NCBI GenBank assembly: GCA_034433385.1
Contig: DAOUAN010000154.1
Span: 3,806-67,805, forward strand
Length of the DNA: 64,000 bases
Direction: 5' to 3'
From: Anaerolineales bacterium
GTDB taxonomy: Bacteria; Chloroflexota; Anaerolineae; Anaerolineales; Villigracilaceae
In this document: piece after piece, positions 9,711 through 32,285 of the stretch
Layout: every line of letters starts with the position of its first letter
Numbering within the stretch: the first letter of the stretch is position 1
The notes under the pieces: generated by a model
Seen by the model: the letters and a program-made list of their open reading frames with translations, nothing else
The model's database searches: none
Told to the model about the DNA's origin: nothing
Program-made: the position numbers and the translations under genes

Positions 9711-9825
9711 GCGGCAATTATAGTCGCAGGCAGAGGAGCAGGCCATCGTATCCCCAGAAGGGAGCATTTTCTGGGCGCAGATTTATGGTATCCTTGAAAA
9801 AAATTTTGTGTGGAGAGGCCCGTCC

Positions 9826-10467
9826 ATGTATATTGCCATCGAAGGGGTGATCGGTGTCGGCAAGACCACCCTGGCCCGCTTGCTTCAACCTGCTTTTGAT
9901 GCCGACCTGTTGCTGGAGATTTTCGAAGAGAATCCCTTTCTTTCGGATTTTTATACCGATCGCGAACGCTACGCTTTTCAAACGCAGATTTTCTTCTTGC
10001 TCAGTCGTTATCACCAGCAGCGACGGGCTGTGCCTGAGTCTCTGCAAAAGGGGCGTTCTTTGATTGCCGATTACACTTTTGCCAAAGATGCCCTGTTCGC
10101 TCGCATCAACCTGAAGGGCGATGAACTGGAAATGTATTACAAAGTGCATGAGGCTCTGGCCGAGAAAATCGAGAAACCCGATTTGATTGTCTATCTGCGA
10201 GCCAGTACAGAGGTGTTGATGCAGCGGATCGCCCTGCGCGACCGTCCTTACGAGCGCCAGATGGAACGCGAGTATATTGATGCGCTCAATGTGGCCTATG
10301 AGGAGTTCTTCTCCAAACCGTTTGATCACACCCCGATTTTGCCCATCGACACGAACAACCTGAACATTGTCCAGAATCCCGATCACCTGAAATGGATCGA
10401 AAACCGCATCCGCGAGACATTGGGCCTGCATCCGTTTCAACCGGCGTTACCCCTGGCCCAGGCATAG
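9826..10467 (+). CDS. Deoxynucleoside kinase (dAK/dCK/dGK family), paralog 1
   Basis: MYIAIEGVIGVGKTTL P-loop, then FEENPFLSDFYTDRERYAFQTQIFFLLSRY. GGAGAGG lies 7 nt upstream of ATG 9826. Confidence 0.85.
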   Translation: MYIAIEGVIGVGKTTLARLLQPAFDADLLLEIFEENPFLSDFYTDRERYAFQTQIFFLLSRYHQQRRAVPESLQKGRSLIADYTFAKDALFARINLKGDELEMYYKVHEALAEKIEKPDLIVYLRASTEVLMQRIALRDRPYERQMEREYIDALNVAYEEFFSKPFDHTPILPIDTNNLNIVQNPDHLKWIENRIRETLGLHPFQPALPLAQA

Positions 10468-10476
10468 GAGGCCTTT

Positions 10477-11496
10477 ATGCGCGTCACCCGAGAGACTTTG
10501 ATTCGTATCGCCAAGGAAACGGCTCAAGAGCGGGCCTACAACGACAAAGACATCATTGCGGCGTATTTGACCGGCTCGCTCTTGGGCGATGAAGCCATTC
10601 TGGGCGGCACGGCGGACATTGACTTGATTCTGGTACATGCCAACAAGCCTCAACAAAGCCGGGAGATCGTCAAACTGACCCCCGATTTTCACCTGGACAT
10701 CGGGCATCGCTCCAAAAGCGAATTTAAATCGCCACGGGAACTGCGCACCGATCCGTGGCTGGGATACGAGGTCTATGATCCGCTGCTTTTGTATGAGCGA
10801 GAAAAGTTTCTCGAATTTGTCCAGGCAGGCGTTCGCGGCGGATTCGAATTCAATCAGCCGGCTTCGGTACTGCAGCGCTGTCGTAAATTACATGCTCATG
10901 GGCGGCAGATCTGGTTTGCTCTTAGCGACGCCCATGCGGATGAACCGAAAACACTCCATCAATTTTTGAAGGCGGTGTATCACGCAGTCAATGCCGTGGC
11001 AGAACTGATCGGCCCGCCTCTGCCAGAACGGCGTTTGCTGGTGCATTTTGCGGCGCGGGCCGAAGCCGCCGGCCGGCCCGGTCTTTACACAGACTTGATG
11101 AAATTGTTGGGTGTGGAAAACCTGGGGAAAATTGATTTGGATCAGGTGCTGGCAAATTGGCAAAGCGATTTCCAGGCGGCGGCCGAAAGCGGCAGAGCCG
11201 ATGTCCGCATTCACCCCGCGCGGTTGAAATATTATGAGAAAGGAATCCGCTCCCTGCTGGATGGGGAAGTTCCCGCCGCGGCCATCTGGCCTCTTTTGCA
11301 AACCTGGACTCTGGCGGCCATGGTCTTGCCACAAGAGCAAAGAGATGCCTGGCGCAGTGTCTGTACTTCACTGGAGTTGAGCGGGGGCGCGTTGGGTCAA
11401 CGCGTGGAAGAGTTGGATCAATTCCTGGACGTTGTGGAAATCTTGCTGGACGAGATAGCCGAGGCCAATGGGGTGGAAAACACTGCCCTCATCTAA
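10477..11496 (+). CDS. Hypothetical protein with an N-terminal pol-beta-type nucleotidyltransferase-like motif
   Basis: GSLLGDEAILGGTADIDLILV resembles the GS-x(n)-DxD minimal nucleotidyltransferase signature. The rest is unassigned. Confidence 0.45.
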   Translation: MRVTRETLIRIAKETAQERAYNDKDIIAAYLTGSLLGDEAILGGTADIDLILVHANKPQQSREIVKLTPDFHLDIGHRSKSEFKSPRELRTDPWLGYEVYDPLLLYEREKFLEFVQAGVRGGFEFNQPASVLQRCRKLHAHGRQIWFALSDAHADEPKTLHQFLKAVYHAVNAVAELIGPPLPERRLLVHFAARAEAAGRPGLYTDLMKLLGVENLGKIDLDQVLANWQSDFQAAAESGRADVRIHPARLKYYEKGIRSLLDGEVPAAAIWPLLQTWTLAAMVLPQEQRDAWRSVCTSLELSGGALGQRVEELDQFLDVVEILLDEIAEANGVENTALI

Positions 11497-11580
11497 CCCA
11501 AAATCTGCCGGCGATTTGAATTCATGCCCGTAAATGTGGTTTAGCAGCAAAGCCATCCTGTGGCTCAATTCCACGAAAAT

Positions 11581-11867
11581 TGTGGATAACCCGCGAAAAA
11601 CTGTGGATAAATCCTGTTCTCTGTGGAAAAGTGACCAATTGTTCGAAAAAACAGATTTTGAACGCCCCCCATATATGGGGGCGTCTTTTTGTTTTGGCCA
11701 AAATATAGAAAGGCGGGGAAAGAGCCATTTCTATCCACTTTTTGCTGTACAGAAGTTATCCACAGATAGATTTCAAAACAAAGCGGCAAATTCCCCTATC
11801 TTTGGGGATACATCGTGCTATTTCCCCCATCTATAGGGCAAACGATCTTTTCTCCCCATTTTCCACA
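11581..11867. promoter_or_regulatory. DnaA-box cluster (candidate oriC or DnaA-titration locus)
   Basis: Perfect TTATCCACA boxes are at 11581-11589 (rc), 11602-11610 (rc) and 11756-11764 (fwd). One-mismatch TTTTCCACA boxes are at 11622-11630 (rc) and 11859-11867 (fwd). A weaker box, CTATCCACT, is at 11731-11739. The left array has 20-21 bp spacing. By eye this stretch looks more AT-rich than the coding sequence around it. Confidence 0.65.
11662..11695 (+). terminator. Rho-independent terminator between the two DnaA-box arrays
   Basis: ACGCCCCC (11662-11669) pairs with GGGGGCGT (11677-11684) around a 7-nt loop. CTTTTTGTTTTGG follows. Confidence 0.7.
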
Positions 11868-11890
11868 AGGCCTACTAAGATTACTAAAAC

Positions 11891-11919
11891 TTGAAACTAA
11901 TTCAAATATCCTGTACAAT
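11891..11919 (+). promoter_or_regulatory. Sigma-70-like promoter for spoVS
   Basis: TTGAAA (11891-11896), a 17-nt spacer, then TACAAT (11914-11919), about 40 nt upstream of the spoVS start. Confidence 0.55.
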
Positions 11920-11958
11920 GAATGTATAGCCCCTTTATCAACCTTTGGGAGGCACACC

Positions 11959-12219
11959 ATGGAGATGATCAAAGTATCTGCAAACTCCCGTACATCCGCT
12001 GTCGCCGGGGCGATCGCGGGTGTCATCCGCGAGCACAAACGGGCAGAAGTGCAGGCCATTGGCGCTGGTGCAGTAAACCAGGCCATCAAAGCGCTGGTCC
12101 TGGCGACCGGCTATTTGAAGAACGATGGGATTAACATTGTCTGCATCCCGGAGTTCGTAGATGTGGAGATCGAGGACAAAGTCCGCACTGCCATTAAACT
12201 GGTAGTCGAGCCTCGCTAA
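11959..12219 (+). CDS. spoVS: SpoVS (stage V sporulation protein S) family protein, 86 aa
   Basis: MEMIKVSANSRTSAVAGAIAGVIREHKRAEVQAIGAGAVNQAIKA... is the typical SpoVS sequence. GGGAGG lies 6 nt upstream of ATG 11959. The ORF-track N-terminal extension was rejected. Confidence 0.85.
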   Translation: MEMIKVSANSRTSAVAGAIAGVIREHKRAEVQAIGAGAVNQAIKALVLATGYLKNDGINIVCIPEFVDVEIEDKVRTAIKLVVEPR

Positions 12220-12305
12220 GTGACAGGCTGATCTTCCTTGAAAAATGCCATCTCTTCGCTCCTCAACAGGACAAAGAGATGCGCCAGAAGGAAAACTCTA
12301 ACCGC

Positions 12306-12329
12306 TAGGGCAGGATTCGTCCTGCCCTA
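12306..12329 (+). other. Perfect 10-bp hairpin with a TTCG loop just upstream of the LTD gene
   Basis: TAGGGCAGGA-TTCG-TCCTGCCCTA. No U-tract follows, so it may be a weak terminator for spoVS or a leader structure. Confidence 0.4.
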
Positions 12330-12339
12330 CGGGTAAATC

Positions 12340-14337
12340 ATGCTGCTTACCGGATCGTCCATGCGGCCTCAGAAACATTTCTTTCGCTACTTACTGATTT
12401 TCATCTTCGTCTTGAGTGCCTTGGGTGGTGCATTGCCTCCCTGGCCAGAGGTAGCGCGGGCTGCTGCACCAGCACAAGCTGCATCTCATGTGGTCATCAG
12501 TGAGTTTCGTTTCCGCGGGCCACAAGGGGGCAACGATGAATTCATTGAATTGTATAATCCGACAGGAGATACTGTAGATATTAGTAATTGGAGTATCTGG
12601 AAATCCAATGGAAGCGGTGTTCAAAGCCAAATCAAAAAAATTCCTTCTGGAACTTTATTGCACTCTGGGCAGCACTATTTAATTGCAAATACAAATTCTA
12701 ATGGCTACAGCGGAAGCGTTCCGCCAGATCTTACTTACACCTCTGGAATTACTGATGATGGCGGCATTGCTCTCCTGGACAATCAGGGGCATTCTGTGGA
12801 TGAGGTGGGAATGACGATATGCCCTGTTACTCCAATTCCTACTCCTACTCCTACTTCGACCCCTCGCTGTTACTATGAAACAAATCCATTAACAGCATTA
12901 ACCACAAACAGCGACCAGGGCTATGAACGCAAGTTGGGTGGAAGCAGTGATAGCTGCCAGGACAGCGATGATAATGCGAATGATTTTTTGCTGGTTTCCC
13001 CCAGCGACCCGCAAAATTCCTCTTCTCCCTTGCGGTTATGTGGCGTCATCTTGCCTACTTTGACCCCTACGGATACGCCAACACCTACCAATATTCCCAC
13101 GGATACCCCCACGCCTCCTCCCACGCCGGCCTGTGCAGATCGCCCCAATGCTACCCCGCTTTCGATCTTGATCAACGAAGTCGCCTGGGCCGGTACCGCG
13201 GCAAACAGCGCCGATGAGTGGATTGAACTGTATAACCCTGGTTCCACCTGTATCAAACTAGATGGCTGGATATTAAAGGCGGATGATAATACCCCGACTA
13301 TCAATCTTAGCGGCGTGATTCAGGCCAATGGGTATTATTTGTTGGAACGCAGCGATGACAACACGGTGAAAGATATTCCGGCAGATAAAATTTACAGCGG
13401 GGAACTTTCGAATAGTGGCGAAAAATTACTTTTGTATAATCCCAATGGTGGGGTGGTGGATACAGCCAACAATGATGGCGGTGGTTGGCCAGCCGGAAGC
13501 AGCCTGATCTATGGCAGCATGGAACGCCGCGGCATCATGTTGGATGTCCCCTCAGCCTGGTTGACCAATACCGGTGCGGTTCGCGACGGTCATGGCCTGG
13601 ATGCGGATGGGCATGAAATCAACGGCACCCCCAAAGCACGAAACTGGGCAGTCACCGTGACCAATACCCCTATCCGCCGCCCCACGGCGACACCTACCCG
13701 TCCGCCTACGCCAGTAGCGCATATCGTAATTAACGAATTCCTGCCACGCCCCGGCTTTGACTGGAATCGCGATGGCCAGGTAAATGTTTACGATGAATTC
13801 ATCGAAATCGCCAACTATGGTCCGGTCGCTGGCTCAGTTTCGGGATGGAAACTGGATGACGAAGCCAATCTTGGTTCGGCGCCTTTTGCTTTACCAAACG
13901 TCACATTGAACCCTGGAGATCACCTGATCGTATATGCCTCCCAAAGCAACATCTTGCTCAGCGACGGAGGCGACACTGTTCGTCTGATTAATTCTCGTGG
14001 TATCGTGGTAGATGCGCGCACCTATTCCATCGCCGCGGTTGCCGATCAATCCTGGTGCCGTTTGCCCGATATGCGAGGATCCTGGTTCAGCGATTGTACC
14101 CCTACCCCAAATTTGCCCAATGAACGAAAAGGAGCCATTCCGGCTACGCCTCCCGGTACAGGATTGGAATCGCCGCTTTGCCTGTTCCCCGATACACTAC
14201 CGGATGACTTTCGACGGGCAGAATGTGCTGGCTATGGCTCAAATATCTGGCAGCCTGCTTACTGGGACGCGCCCGGCTGGCAAGGGTTGCAATGGGTGCC
14301 AGACCTGTTCAGCAAGTGGCTTTCGTTTGTGGAGTAA
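12340..14337 (+). CDS. Secreted protein with three lamin-tail-domain (LTD) repeats and Thr/Pro linkers
   Basis: N-terminal hydrophobic signal. Three LTD-like cores: HVVISEFRFRG..NDEFIELYNPTGDTVDISNWSI, ILINEVAWAGT..ADEWIELYNPGSTCIKLDGWIL and HIVINEFLPRP..YDEFIEIANYGPVAGSVSGWKL. TPTPT-type linkers. The start may be ATG 12361. Confidence 0.75.
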   Translation: MLLTGSSMRPQKHFFRYLLIFIFVLSALGGALPPWPEVARAAAPAQAASHVVISEFRFRGPQGGNDEFIELYNPTGDTVDISNWSIWKSNGSGVQSQIKKIPSGTLLHSGQHYLIANTNSNGYSGSVPPDLTYTSGITDDGGIALLDNQGHSVDEVGMTICPVTPIPTPTPTSTPRCYYETNPLTALTTNSDQGYERKLGGSSDSCQDSDDNANDFLLVSPSDPQNSSSPLRLCGVILPTLTPTDTPTPTNIPTDTPTPPPTPACADRPNATPLSILINEVAWAGTAANSADEWIELYNPGSTCIKLDGWILKADDNTPTINLSGVIQANGYYLLERSDDNTVKDIPADKIYSGELSNSGEKLLLYNPNGGVVDTANNDGGGWPAGSSLIYGSMERRGIMLDVPSAWLTNTGAVRDGHGLDADGHEINGTPKARNWAVTVTNTPIRRPTATPTRPPTPVAHIVINEFLPRPGFDWNRDGQVNVYDEFIEIANYGPVAGSVSGWKLDDEANLGSAPFALPNVTLNPGDHLIVYASQSNILLSDGGDTVRLINSRGIVVDARTYSIAAVADQSWCRLPDMRGSWFSDCTPTPNLPNERKGAIPATPPGTGLESPLCLFPDTLPDDFRRAECAGYGSNIWQPAYWDAPGWQGLQWVPDLFSKWLSFVE

Positions 14338-31151: not shown

Positions 31152-32285
31152 TTAGCCCAGGTGCATGGGCATGATGACTTGCAAATAGCTGTCGTCGCCC
31201 ACCGGTCGAATCACGCCGGGGGCATTCGGCCCCGAAGTCTCTAGCGCCACGTTCGGCGTCTTGATCGCTTCTAGCGCCTCGCGCAAGAACTTGACGTTGA
31301 AGGCAATCAACAGGCCGCTGCCATCTACTGTGGCCTCGACGATGGTCTCGTTTTTGCCGGTCTCTTCCGATGTGGCCGAGATTTCCACTTCGCTGGGTTG
31401 CATTTCACTGACCGCCGATTTGATGTCCAGCCGCACGACGTTGGCTCCCTCGCGGGCGAAGATTTCGGCCTGTTTGCAGGCTTTGAGCATGGCTGTTGTC
31501 GAGACCAGGGTGCGCGACTTATAGGAACGCGGGATGATTTGCTGGTAATCGGGGAAGGTGCCGTCAATCAGTTGTGAGACCACTTCTACGTCTTTGACGC
31601 GGAAGATCACCTGACCGCGCCCTTTCGGGACGATCATGTATACCAGCTCGTTGCCGTCACTGATGATGCGGCTCAGCTCGCTCAGCGCTCGGGCCGGGAC
31701 GATGACGCTGACCGGTTGCGGTGCAGGCGTGGATAGGGTGGCCTTGCGCACCGCCAGGCGGAAGCCATCGGCCGCAGCCATAGTGATTTGATCTTTTTCC
31801 ACGGTGACCAGTACACCCATCAAGACGGGGCGGGCCTCATCCGTAGAGGCAGCAAAGGCCACCTGCTGAATCATTTCTTTGAAATCAGCCACATTCAGTT
31901 GAATGGCGCCGTCCATCTCAGGCACGGGCAAGGGCGGAAATTCCTGGGCATCAATGCACTTGATGTCGTTGTTCGAGGTGCCACAGCGCACATTGAGCGT
32001 TTGCGAAGCCACATCCAGAGTCAGGGTAACTTGCTCGCCTGGCAGGGTGTTGACCAGGTCAGAGAACGTGCGAGCCGGCACCGTCGTCGAGCCTTCTTCT
32101 TCGATACGCGCCGGCACCCAGCAGGTGATTCCCAGTTCCAGGTTGGTGGCTGAAAGTCGCAGCCGCCCCTCGTCGCTGGCGATCAACACATTGGCCAGGA
32201 CTGGCAGGGTGCTGCGTGGAGAAACTGCGCGCGAGACAATACTCAGGCCGCGAGCGAGATTTTCCTGAAGGACAATGACTTTCAT
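31152..32285 (-). CDS. dnaN: DNA polymerase III beta subunit (sliding clamp)
   Basis: MKVIVLQENLARGLSIVSRAV...LPVLANVLI..., 377 aa, with the typical three-domain clamp length. Confidence 0.93.
   Translation of the reverse strand: MKVIVLQENLARGLSIVSRAVSPRSTLPVLANVLIASDEGRLRLSATNLELGITCWVPARIEEEGSTTVPARTFSDLVNTLPGEQVTLTLDVASQTLNVRCGTSNNDIKCIDAQEFPPLPVPEMDGAIQLNVADFKEMIQQVAFAASTDEARPVLMGVLVTVEKDQITMAAADGFRLAVRKATLSTPAPQPVSVIVPARALSELSRIISDGNELVYMIVPKGRGQVIFRVKDVEVVSQLIDGTFPDYQQIIPRSYKSRTLVSTTAMLKACKQAEIFAREGANVVRLDIKSAVSEMQPSEVEISATSEETGKNETIVEATVDGSGLLIAFNVKFLREALEAIKTPNVALETSGPNAPGVIRPVGDDSYLQVIMPMHLG

Follow-up and report, generated by a model that had tools for sequence, protein, structure and literature searches.

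Within the window, by which we mean the whole 64,000-nucleotide stretch of DNA that was analysed, an intergenic spacer separates a 339-aa ORF from spoVS. The window lies on contig C154 of a draft Anaerolineales genome (189 contigs, 3.136 Mb). An earlier note on this DNA had proposed the spacer as a candidate oriC, pointing to three perfect and at least two one-mismatch DnaA boxes within 290 bp of what looked like a locally AT-rich region. Three perfect and two one-mismatch boxes were recovered by motif search, and the AT-richness was borne out by the composition of the spacer (58% A+T versus 43.7% for the whole window). An Rfam search of 11300-12300 returned only sub-threshold noise. The features to which we refer below are the following.

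11497-11958: intergenic spacer, 463 bp, between the 339-aa ORF and spoVS
11525-11540: box a, degenerate copy of the NrdR-type palindrome, TGCCCGTAAATGTGGT, below threshold; ~55 bp left of the first DnaA box
11581-11630, minus strand: DUE-distal array of three DnaA boxes, spacings 21 and 20 bp
11581-11589, minus strand: perfect TTATCCACA DnaA box (motif search)
11602-11610, minus strand: perfect TTATCCACA DnaA box (motif search)
11622-11630, minus strand: one-mismatch DnaA box (motif search)
11636-11646: conserved motif CAATTGTTCGA, right of the triple array (conserved columns in 14 family origins)
11666-11681: NrdR-type box b, CCCCCATATATGGGGG, 25.7 bits with a matrix from relatives' nrdR promoters
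11696-11711: weak partner box c, GGCCAAAATATAGAAA, below 8 bits; family consensus CCAAAATATGGAA
11731-11739, plus strand: weak DnaA box CTATCCACT, two mismatches
11756-11764, plus strand: perfect TTATCCACA DnaA box (motif search)
11793-11808: NrdR-type box d, 10.0 bits
11824-11839: NrdR-type box e, 14.4 bits
11850-11867, plus strand: abutting DnaA boxes of the putative basal unwinding system (BUS), TTCTCCCCA + TTTTCCACA; family consensus [TTnTCCACA][nTnTCCACA]
11850-11858, plus strand: DnaA box TTCTCCCCA, two mismatches, abutting the box at 11859
11859-11867, plus strand: one-mismatch DnaA box TTTTCCACA (motif search)
11868-11871, plus strand: GC-rich spacer AGGC, 4 bp; family consensus nCCC
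11872-11889, plus strand: candidate DnaA-trios CTA CTA AGA TTA CTA AAA (other strand 3'-GAT GAT TCT AAT GAT TTT-5')
11872-11929: AT-rich candidate DNA-unwinding element (DUE), 78% A+T at 11880-11919
11891-11919, plus strand: predicted spoVS promoter TTGAAA-17-TACAAT, 10/12 consensus positions
11959-12219, plus strand: spoVS, 86 aa (Pfam PF04232, E 1.8e-35), right-hand neighbour, outside the proposed origin
31152-32285, minus strand: dnaN

DnaA boxes and the candidate unwinding module

The arrangement of the boxes was as the earlier note had described it: the three left-hand boxes lie on the minus strand at 21- and 20-bp spacing, and those at 11731, 11756 and 11859 all lie on the opposite, plus strand. 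Boxes with at most one mismatch number 639 in the 3.136 Mb of the draft, which gives an expectation of 0.059 per 290 bp against the five observed; the Poisson probability of at least five boxes is 5.7e-9 per 290 bp and ~6e-5 genome-wide. A genome-wide count of perfect TTATCCACA boxes, suggested earlier as a check of enrichment, gave 19 in the 3.1-Mb draft genome, three of them in the spacer, and the spacer cluster proved to be the densest DnaA-box cluster genome-wide. The second-best cluster (C127:11755-11820), composed of TTATGCACA/TTATCCACA-like repeats, falls within the 3' end of a coding region; it was rejected as chance or coding sequence. The complete genome of a relative, G181, holds 50 perfect boxes, the only two of which less than 1 kb apart belong to the triple array, and no second cluster of perfect boxes was detected anywhere in that genome. 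An equally dense rival cluster, which the earlier note had named as evidence against an origin, is therefore absent from both the source genome and G181.

The right-hand boxes lead into a sequence that resembles the basal unwinding system of B. subtilis and C. difficile (DnaA boxes 6 and 7, GC cluster, DnaA-trios, DUE). As in those origins, two adjacent co-oriented boxes are followed by a 4-bp GC-rich spacer, by CTA CTA trios (3'-GAT-5' on the other strand) and, directly downstream, by an AT-rich DUE. The position of the first of the two boxes (11850-11858) holds a good DnaA box in relatives, and in most family origins the trios begin with the pair CTA CTA. Because of the 4-bp GC-rich spacer, the first trio lies 13 bp from the upstream box, the modal distance in this system and the commonest spacer among predicted BUS modules (PMC8287927). 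The trios are given here on the strand used for the published C. difficile trio, CACCTACTACTATTACTACTATGA (PMC7561715), and the stretch matches the published module definitions of at least three trios 3'-[G/A]A[T/A]-5' oriented toward the DUE (PMC8287927, PMC7561715). In agreement with this layout, the least stable 40-mers within 11000-12600 start at 11871-11880. The candidate origin differs from those of B. subtilis and C. difficile in being monopartite, without flanking dnaA or dnaN, and in adding the opposed, phased triple array and the NrdR-type palindromes.

Conservation, distance from dnaA and strand asymmetry

Of 201 family genomes, 176 contain the triple-box pattern GTGGATAA-N12-TGTGGANAA-N11-TGTGGA, nearly all of them in single copy, and the reversed pattern, used as a control, gave 0 matches in the same 201 genomes. 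The remainder of the ~300-bp layout was found again in all 30 pattern-bearing loci that were fetched, and the same layout was evident in 14 aligned family origins located upstream of spoVS. The box at 11756 is position-conserved in most of the family origins fetched (offset ~+150 to +200).

Since spoVS lies directly downstream in 14 of the 23 family genomes first examined, and a TTGAAA-17-TACAAT promoter within the unwinding element follows the last DnaA box at a distance of 24 bp, the locus might be read as a complex spoVS operator that has no role as an origin and at which DnaA and NrdR, as transcription factors, would couple spoVS expression to the state of replication. This promoter is conserved in the relatives that keep spoVS at the locus (family-origin alignment). 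We consider such an operator highly improbable. The element is intact where unrelated genes replace spoVS, either on the right flank (G014, G016, G020) or together with a different left flank (G002), and where spoVS is located elsewhere no DnaA boxes are found upstream of it. Two outgroup families, G036 and G037, carry this module (GCCC CTACTA) immediately 3' of dnaA and have spoVS on the opposite side of that gene. In addition, ~400 bp with seven boxes and trios far exceed what a promoter-operator needs. Of the proposal that oriC is uncoupled from dnaA-dnaN and sits beside spoVS, the uncoupling was thus upheld, whereas the link to spoVS turned out to be common in the family but not obligatory.

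As previously noted, dnaA is outside the window, and the dnaN gene within it has no DnaA boxes upstream. The dnaA gene of the source genome is on a different contig, C35, and the ~460 bp upstream of it (C35:31375-31840) contain one NrdR-type box and no DnaA boxes; lacking them, this region was rejected as an origin. The distance from the array to dnaA amounts to 617 kb in G181 and 704 kb in G159. The candidate origin is therefore unlike the dnaA/dnaN-linked origins of Firmicutes, Actinobacteria and many other bacteria, and unlike the outgroups G036 and G037, in that it does not occupy an intergenic region flanking dnaA. Because the homologous unwinding module is still beside dnaA in the outgroup families, the origin appears to have been separated from dnaA within the order. 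We found no specific oriC description for Anaerolineae or Chloroflexi in the literature.

The GC-skew check was done on relatives, the source genome consisting of unordered contigs; taken together, the relatives gave a mixed but mostly favourable picture. G181 (3,970,692 bp) shows positive GC skew from 0 to 1.6 Mb and negative skew from 1.8 to 3.6 Mb. Its skew trough extends over 3.75-3.93 Mb and is deepest at 3,929,001; the array, at 3,905,266, shares a bin (3.90-3.92 Mb) with the gene-orientation minimum. The trough places the origin only to within tens of kb because GC skew is weak in the family (|skew| ~0.01-0.05). The outcome was also positive in G012, with a cumulative-skew minimum at 742-762 kb and the array at 752.1 kb, and in G159, where the mean skew is -0.040 to the left of the array and +0.040 to the right; it was weakly positive in G079 and G147, which have a weak skew change of the expected sign at the array. 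It was negative in G006, where the weak cumulative-skew minimum is ~120 kb away from the array, at which gene orientation shows no switch either, and in G135, where neither the skew nor the gene-orientation profile switches at the array. Both G006 and G135 are MAGs with very weak skew. On contig C154 and in the window no skew switch was seen at 11.5 kb; only 15 kb lie to the left of this point, and their skew is positive, not negative.

The absence of a switch in G006 and G135, together with the remoteness of dnaA, would suit a cluster of DnaA boxes that is not an origin (similar to datA, DARS or the B. subtilis DBCs) and that titrates or recharges DnaA next to an NrdR site, the true origin being at another site, which might have non-canonical boxes or fall into a gap of the assembly. 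The spacer does share with datA/DARS and the DBCs a dense cluster of consensus boxes away from dnaA. These known titration and reactivation sites, however, lack the box/GC-spacer/trio/DUE module that is conserved here, having neither DnaA-trios nor a DUE, and they do not sit at a skew switch. In G181, by contrast, there is no other cluster of perfect boxes, and both the skew trough and the orientation switch fall at the array; moreover, the outgroups hold the homologous module at the classical position adjacent to dnaA. We therefore judge a non-origin cluster to be very unlikely, and the earlier suggestion of a datA/DARS-like site or a DnaA-regulated promoter does not fit a locus that carries a trio/DUE module at the asymmetry switch of G181.

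All in all, the preference for oriC over those two alternatives is well supported by sequence comparison, because the locus combines the only strong box cluster, a complete unwinding module, single-copy conservation in the family whatever the flanking genes, and, in G181, the skew trough with the orientation switch. Positions 11525-11930 of the window very probably represent the chromosomal oriC of this Anaerolineales (Chloroflexota) genome, as the earlier note had proposed.

NrdR-type palindromes among the DnaA boxes

NrdR operators of RNR promoters are reportedly paired 16-bp palindromes (Rodionov and Gelfand, 2005). Using a matrix built from the nrdR promoters of 27 relatives, with 8 bits as the threshold for a good box and a pair defined as two boxes 14-17 bp (or 24-27 bp) apart, we found that box b, a 16-bp palindrome with a central AT matching the RNR-promoter boxes of the lineage, is the best match to the matrix in the genome. 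It is present at the same offset in 39 of 40 family origins. Its core 12-mer, CCCATATATGGG, occurs once in the genome, in the origin, and the three one-mismatch copies genome-wide are located at the nrdR-nrdJ promoter (two) and upstream of dnaA (one). The position of box a (offset -45 to -58) scores at least 8 bits in 26 of the 40 origins, and the interval of boxes d and e holds at least one box of at least 8 bits in ~30 of the 40. Overall, NrdR-type boxes reach a density of 5.7 per kb in the 40 origins versus 0.08 per kb in the flanks.

The boxes may also be grouped into two pairs. The centres of b and c are 30 bp apart, with a 14-bp spacer and c below 8 bits; those of d and e are 31 bp apart, with a 15-bp spacer and d at only 10.0 bits. 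Spacers of 14-17 bp between boxes bind NrdR (PMC12051234), and the two pair spacings agree with measured NrdR requirements (PMC12176259, PMC12051234). The origin would thus carry four or five predicted NrdR boxes at fixed positions, two pairs of them at the spacing that an NrdR tetramer requires, to which the protein may bind. NrdR itself is encoded at C9:124-576 (TIGR00244, 172 bits versus a cut-off of 124.65), and the only RNR found in a PF02867 (Ribonuc_red_lgC) search lies behind nrdR on the same contig. In relatives, too, nrdR is preceded by a conserved copy of the palindrome, and 24 of 28 relatives have one near -330 of dnaA, as the source genome does ~330 bp upstream of its own dnaA. 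No RNR gene lies near 11500-12300, so that the palindromes are not at an RNR promoter. Compared with NrdR operators at RNR promoters, including those in the S. coelicolor and E. coli structures, the origin boxes share the palindrome of the lineage's own nrdR-nrdJ operator, its central AT and, within the putative pairs, spacers of 14-15 bp; they differ in their location inside the origin and upstream of dnaA, and in the weakness of the second box of each origin pair.

The central palindrome had previously been described as a strong hairpin/terminator at 11662-11695. The hairpin (11662-11684) and the T-run exist, and they score as an intrinsic terminator in the source genome, where the hairpin may still stop read-through. 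The terminator reading was nonetheless rejected in favour of a conserved NrdR-type palindrome: relatives preserve the sequence of the palindrome but not the T-run.

It could still be that the locus is oriC while its palindromes are bound by another protein, either nucleoid-associated or origin-specific, or form a hairpin/terminator that shields the origin from upstream read-through. The terminator score in the source genome is consistent with this, as are the weakness of partner boxes c and d, the degenerate state of site a and the lack of an adjacent RNR gene. NrdR boxes outside RNR promoters have also been doubted: many lone NrdR-box predictions are suspected false positives, and the lone boxes at Shewanella dnaA and Pseudomonas topA are predictions or single cases only (bioRxiv 2025.03.28.645925). 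We nevertheless regard this alternative as rather unlikely. The motif is the conserved nrdR-nrdJ operator of the source genome and its relatives, a matrix derived from nrdR operators alone ranks the origin site first genome-wide, it is the sequence and not stem complementarity with a T-run that is conserved across relatives, and a pair spacing of 30-31 bp is a signature of NrdR. We found no report of NrdR boxes inside oriC in the literature.

A proposed mechanism and its significance

If B. subtilis and E. coli are a guide, DnaA would bind the plus-strand boxes at 11731, 11756, 11850 and 11859, and a filament of ATP-DnaA would grow from the abutting pair across the GC-rich spacer onto the trios, melting the AT-rich stretch that also holds the spoVS promoter. 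The helically phased, opposed triple array could form a second DnaA subcomplex, which might act like the Right-DOR of E. coli or the distal incC boxes of B. subtilis in stabilising the open complex and loading the second helicase. The resemblance to E. coli oriC (DUE, Left-DOR with an IHF site, Right-DOR) extends to two opposed box arrays on one side of the DUE, a promoter at the edge of the origin, sites of a further protein among the DnaA boxes (predicted here) and, as E. coli oriC lies between mnmG/gidA and mioC, an origin unlinked from dnaA. On the other hand, the accessory sites of the spacer are NrdR-type palindromes instead of IHF, Fis or GATC/SeqA sites, its boxes are spaced differently, and it has clear tandem boxes and trios where the E. 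coli version has diverged.

The most likely reading of the palindromes is that NrdR loaded with ATP/dATP occupies the origin as well as the single box upstream of dnaA, in which case initiation and initiator synthesis would both respond to the dNTP pool. NrdR might either block the assembly of DnaA or bend the DNA to assist it, as IHF does in E. coli. In the same reading, the region upstream of dnaA would have lost its DnaA autoregulatory boxes. The conserved sites hint that the supply of DNA precursors is read directly at the origin. The full proposal, that NrdR in Anaerolineales is a structural and regulatory component of the origin whose tetramers sit on the two box pairs amid the DnaA arrays and on the box upstream of dnaA, so that the deoxynucleotide pool gates both firing and initiator synthesis, is put forward tentatively, as somewhat short of an even chance.

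Every bacterium has a replication origin, and origins away from dnaA are already known, so that the spacer, as an origin, would be an ordinary feature in itself. Its practical value would lie in a signature, precise and conserved, by which the origin can be recognised in a large Anaerolineae family with almost no cultured members; such a signature can serve to orient MAGs, to estimate growth rates from the peak-to-trough ratio of coverage and to examine rearrangements with breakpoints at the origin. A link between dNTPs and initiation has been sought in model bacteria and, to our knowledge, is known only in the reverse direction, as DnaA boxes at nrd promoters. If NrdR does bind the origin, this lineage would couple initiation directly to its dNTP sensor, through a checkpoint from precursor supply to initiation that has not been described before, with NrdR in the role that IHF, Fis or SeqA has in E. 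coli.

DnaA boxes in the spacer before spoVS

The 463-bp spacer between a 339-aa open reading frame (10477-11496, plus strand) and spoVS (11959-12219, plus strand, PF04232) contains the following DnaA boxes:

Perfect boxes, TTATCCACA: 11581 (minus), 11602 (minus), 11756 (plus)
One-mismatch boxes: 11622 (minus), 11859 (plus)
Two-mismatch boxes: 11731 (plus), 11850 (plus)

The genome is a draft of 189 contigs (3.14 Mb, 56.8% G+C), with the window at C154:3806-67805. Its density of boxes carrying no more than one mismatch is 0.20 per kb, which gives a Poisson P of ~6e-9 for five of them in any one 290-bp stretch. Coordinates and probability thus confirm the cluster of three perfect and two one-mismatch boxes described in an earlier note, and the genome-wide count that it had proposed places 3 of 19 perfect boxes at the candidate origin. 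The second-best cluster of the genome (C127:11755-11820, outside the window) comprises four DnaA-box-like 9-mers within 65 bp (TTTTCCACA, TTATGCACA, TTATCCACA and TTATGCACA); it was rejected as a rival because it lies inside a coding region, at the 3′ end, where it probably reflects chance or a coding repeat. In the complete genome of a relative, G181, the sole pair of perfect boxes less than 1 kb apart is in the phased triple array that corresponds to 11581-11630. Across that genome TTATCCACA occurs 50 times vs 10 for a reversed-sequence control, a five-fold excess of scattered single boxes that might represent DnaA titration or regulon sites.

Conserved architecture of the candidate origin

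The triple-box pattern GTGGATAA-N12-TGTGGANAA-N11-TGTGGA was present in 176 of 201 family genomes (137 of the 146 of high quality), nearly always as a single copy in the 176 carriers, and the reversed pattern gave 0 matches in the same family genomes. Alignment of the regions upstream of spoVS from 14 family genomes, together with 30 further loci found with the pattern and motif-anchored line-ups, revealed a fixed layout of ~400 bp:

Elements of the candidate origin, left to right
1. 11525-11540: palindrome of the type CCCATATnTGGG, degenerate in this genome (box a)
2. Three DnaA boxes, minus strand, spacings 21 and 20 bp
3. 11636-11646: conserved motif CAATTGTTCGA, next to the triple array on its right side
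4. 11666-11681: palindrome CCCCCATATATGGGGG (box b)
5. 11696-11711: weaker palindrome copy CCAAAATATAGA, 30 bp right of CCCCCATATATGGGGG; family consensus CCAAAATATGGAA (box c)
6. 11756, plus strand: DnaA box
7. 11793-11808 and 11824-11839: two palindromes, 31 bp apart (boxes d and e)
8. 11850-11867, plus strand: two abutting DnaA boxes
9. GC-rich spacer, 4 bp
10. 11872-11889: CTA CTA AGA TTA CTA AAA
11. AT-rich stretch with the spoVS promoter TTGAAA-17-TACAAT inside

The family consensus of elements 8 to 10 is [TTnTCCACA][nTnTCCACA] nCCC CTA CTA nnA TTA CkA, where CTA corresponds to 3′-GAT-5′ on the opposite strand, the DnaA-trio consensus; the published C. difficile trio, CACCTACTACTATTACTACTATGA, has the same strand sense (PMC7561715). 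The upstream box is separated from the first trio by 13 bp, the modal spacer among predicted basal unwinding systems (BUS) (PMC8287927), and the least stable 40-mers of the duplex between 11000 and 12600 begin at 11871-11880. Given these elements, the sense of the trios, the spacer and the position of the least stable 40-mers, every sequence-level feature of an origin composed of DnaA boxes, trios and a DNA-unwinding element (DUE) is present, and in the correct orientation. The CAATTGTTCGA motif, kept in most family origins, fits neither the DnaA nor the NrdR consensus and could be the binding site of a further protein.

The element might instead be an operator of spoVS, which follows it directly in 14 of the 23 family genomes first examined. 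Relatives retrieved with the left-flank protein are metagenome-assembled genomes labelled Anaerolineae, Anaerolineales or Anaerolineaceae. Among the family loci, the right flank differs in G014, G016 and G020, and both flanks differ in G002. Because boxes, trios and palindromes are kept in all four and the breakpoints fall just past the AT-rich stretch, the operator reading is disfavoured; this retention fits a self-standing element whose edges are breakpoints of rearrangements. The 339-aa frame that borders the origin on the left is conserved at 54-88% identity, and no Pfam or NCBIfam family matches it. It is preceded by a deoxynucleoside kinase gene (9808-10467), and the order kinase, 339-aa frame, origin is found in this genome, G014 and G016.

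Strand asymmetry and separation from dnaA

Since the genome is a draft and the left arm of the contig is too short, strand asymmetry was read on relatives. In G181 (3,970,692 bp; array at 3,905,266), sampled GC skew was positive at 0-1.6 Mb and negative at 1.8-3.6 Mb, a contiguous 450-kb stretch had its skew trough at 3.75-3.93 Mb with the minimum at 3,929,001, and cumulative gene orientation was lowest in the bin 3.90-3.92 Mb. On an 812-kb contig of G012 (array at 752.1 kb), cumulative skew dropped over 340 kb, reached its lowest point at 742-762 kb and then climbed, and the gene-orientation minimum lay at ~732 kb. In G159 mean skew passed from -0.040 on the left to +0.040 on the right, gene orientation being uninformative. 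Applied to relatives, the GC-skew test suggested in the earlier note agreed with the array in these three genomes and weakly, with the expected sign, in G079 and G147 (gene orientation in G147 changed from +28/-56 to +55/-43), and it failed in G135, where neither measure switches, and in G006, where a weak skew minimum lies ~120 kb off the array and gene orientation does not switch there. In the G006 stretch C2:1-400000 (L054-L073) the cumulative minimum is at ~200 kb and the array at 81 kb; an inversion beside the origin, misassembly or a skew too weak to read could account for the mismatch. Overall, the asymmetry evidence is supportive of oriC, most clearly in the one closed genome, with two cases unexplained.

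What has been observed directly is the set of sequence elements, how conserved and how unique they are, and their match to asymmetry switches in some of the relatives. Uniqueness, the box/trio/DUE module, conservation and the asymmetry in relatives support the earlier proposal of an origin, and we consider it very probable from its sequence that the window element is oriC.

The uncoupling from dnaA also held: dnaA is on contig C35, with no DnaA box in the 460 bp upstream of it, and dnaN lies in the window (31152-32285, minus strand). The distance between array and dnaA is 617 kb (G181) or 704 kb (G159). Two further families of the order (G036:C424:1600-4800, L220; G037:C1:4313300-4316200, L219) have a homologous module, TTATCCACA GCCC CTA CTA AGA ..., directly 3′ of dnaA with the same palindromes and, in G037, abutting boxes; in both, spoVS is the divergent 5′ neighbour of dnaA. 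Therefore, origin and dnaA became separated in the family of the window, and the arrangement hints that an oriC-dnaA-spoVS neighbourhood is ancestral and was rearranged later. As an origin, the element is of a known kind: it is BUS-type and, like the E. coli origin, not linked to dnaA.

NrdR-type boxes within the candidate origin

The dNTP-sensing repressor NrdR is encoded at C9:124-576 (TIGR00244, 172 bits), followed by the sole ribonucleotide reductase (RNR) found with PF02867, an open frame of 1317 codons (operon C9:124-4650) whose Pfam large-subunit domain is interrupted at position 391 by a ~440-codon insertion, possibly an intein. Three NrdR boxes precede the operon (C9:44-130), at C9:46 (weaker), C9:77 and C9:117, and the C9:117 box overlaps the start codon of nrdR. 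The centre-to-centre distances of the three, 31 and 40 bp, correspond to the three-turn and four-turn phasing at which NrdR binds (PMC12176259; PMC12051234). Relatives carry a box ~45 bp ahead of nrdR, and a weaker box frequently lies another 30-31 bp upstream.

The genome's only exact copy of the core 12-mer CCCATATATGGG is at the origin; three one-mismatch copies lie elsewhere (C9:77, C9:117 and C35:31507). A 16-bp matrix was trained on the nrdR promoters of relatives, this genome left out. Its best hit genome-wide, at 25.7 bits, is the origin palindrome; the nrdR promoter takes second place (23.0), and the site upstream of dnaA and box e of the origin come seventh (16.6) and twelfth (14.4). 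Across 40 family origins the density of boxes scoring 8 bits or more was 5.7 per kb, vs 0.08 per kb in their own flanking DNA. The offsets of these boxes are conserved, with the central one present in 39 of 40, and the boxes are retained both at loci that lack spoVS and in the outgroup origins linked to dnaA. Judged by motif, the origin palindromes are probably NrdR sites. Predictions of lone NrdR boxes exist for dnaA in Shewanella and for topA in Pseudomonas, and the topA site has reporter evidence behind it (PMC4409342); a recent study regards most NrdR sites outside RNR promoters as doubtful (bioRxiv 2025.03.28.645925). We found no literature report of NrdR boxes inside an origin, and the embedding of NrdR-type boxes in the probable oriC at conserved positions is what is new here.

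One NrdR-type box, TGCCAATATATGGGGG, also lies ~330 bp upstream of dnaA (C35:31505-31520), and 24 of 28 relatives have one near -330. This conserved box, in an upstream region devoid of DnaA boxes, suggests that dnaA may belong to the NrdR regulon instead of being autoregulated by DnaA.

On the model of B. subtilis and E. coli, DnaA bound to the abutting pair of boxes would seed an ATP-DnaA filament along the trios, opening the AT-rich stretch, and the opposed phased triple array would form a second subcomplex that aids opening and helicase loading. Where the spoVS promoter is present in the DUE, transcription from it may further help to activate the origin; the promoter would not be essential, since it is missing from some members of the family. 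Going by motif identity, ATP/dATP-loaded NrdR tetramers may occupy the b-c and d-e pairs between the DnaA arrays, and NrdR may also bind the box upstream of dnaA. That NrdR regulates initiation is a tentative proposal, to which we give somewhat less than even weight; its effect could be repression or assistance, either sense being compatible with the sequence.
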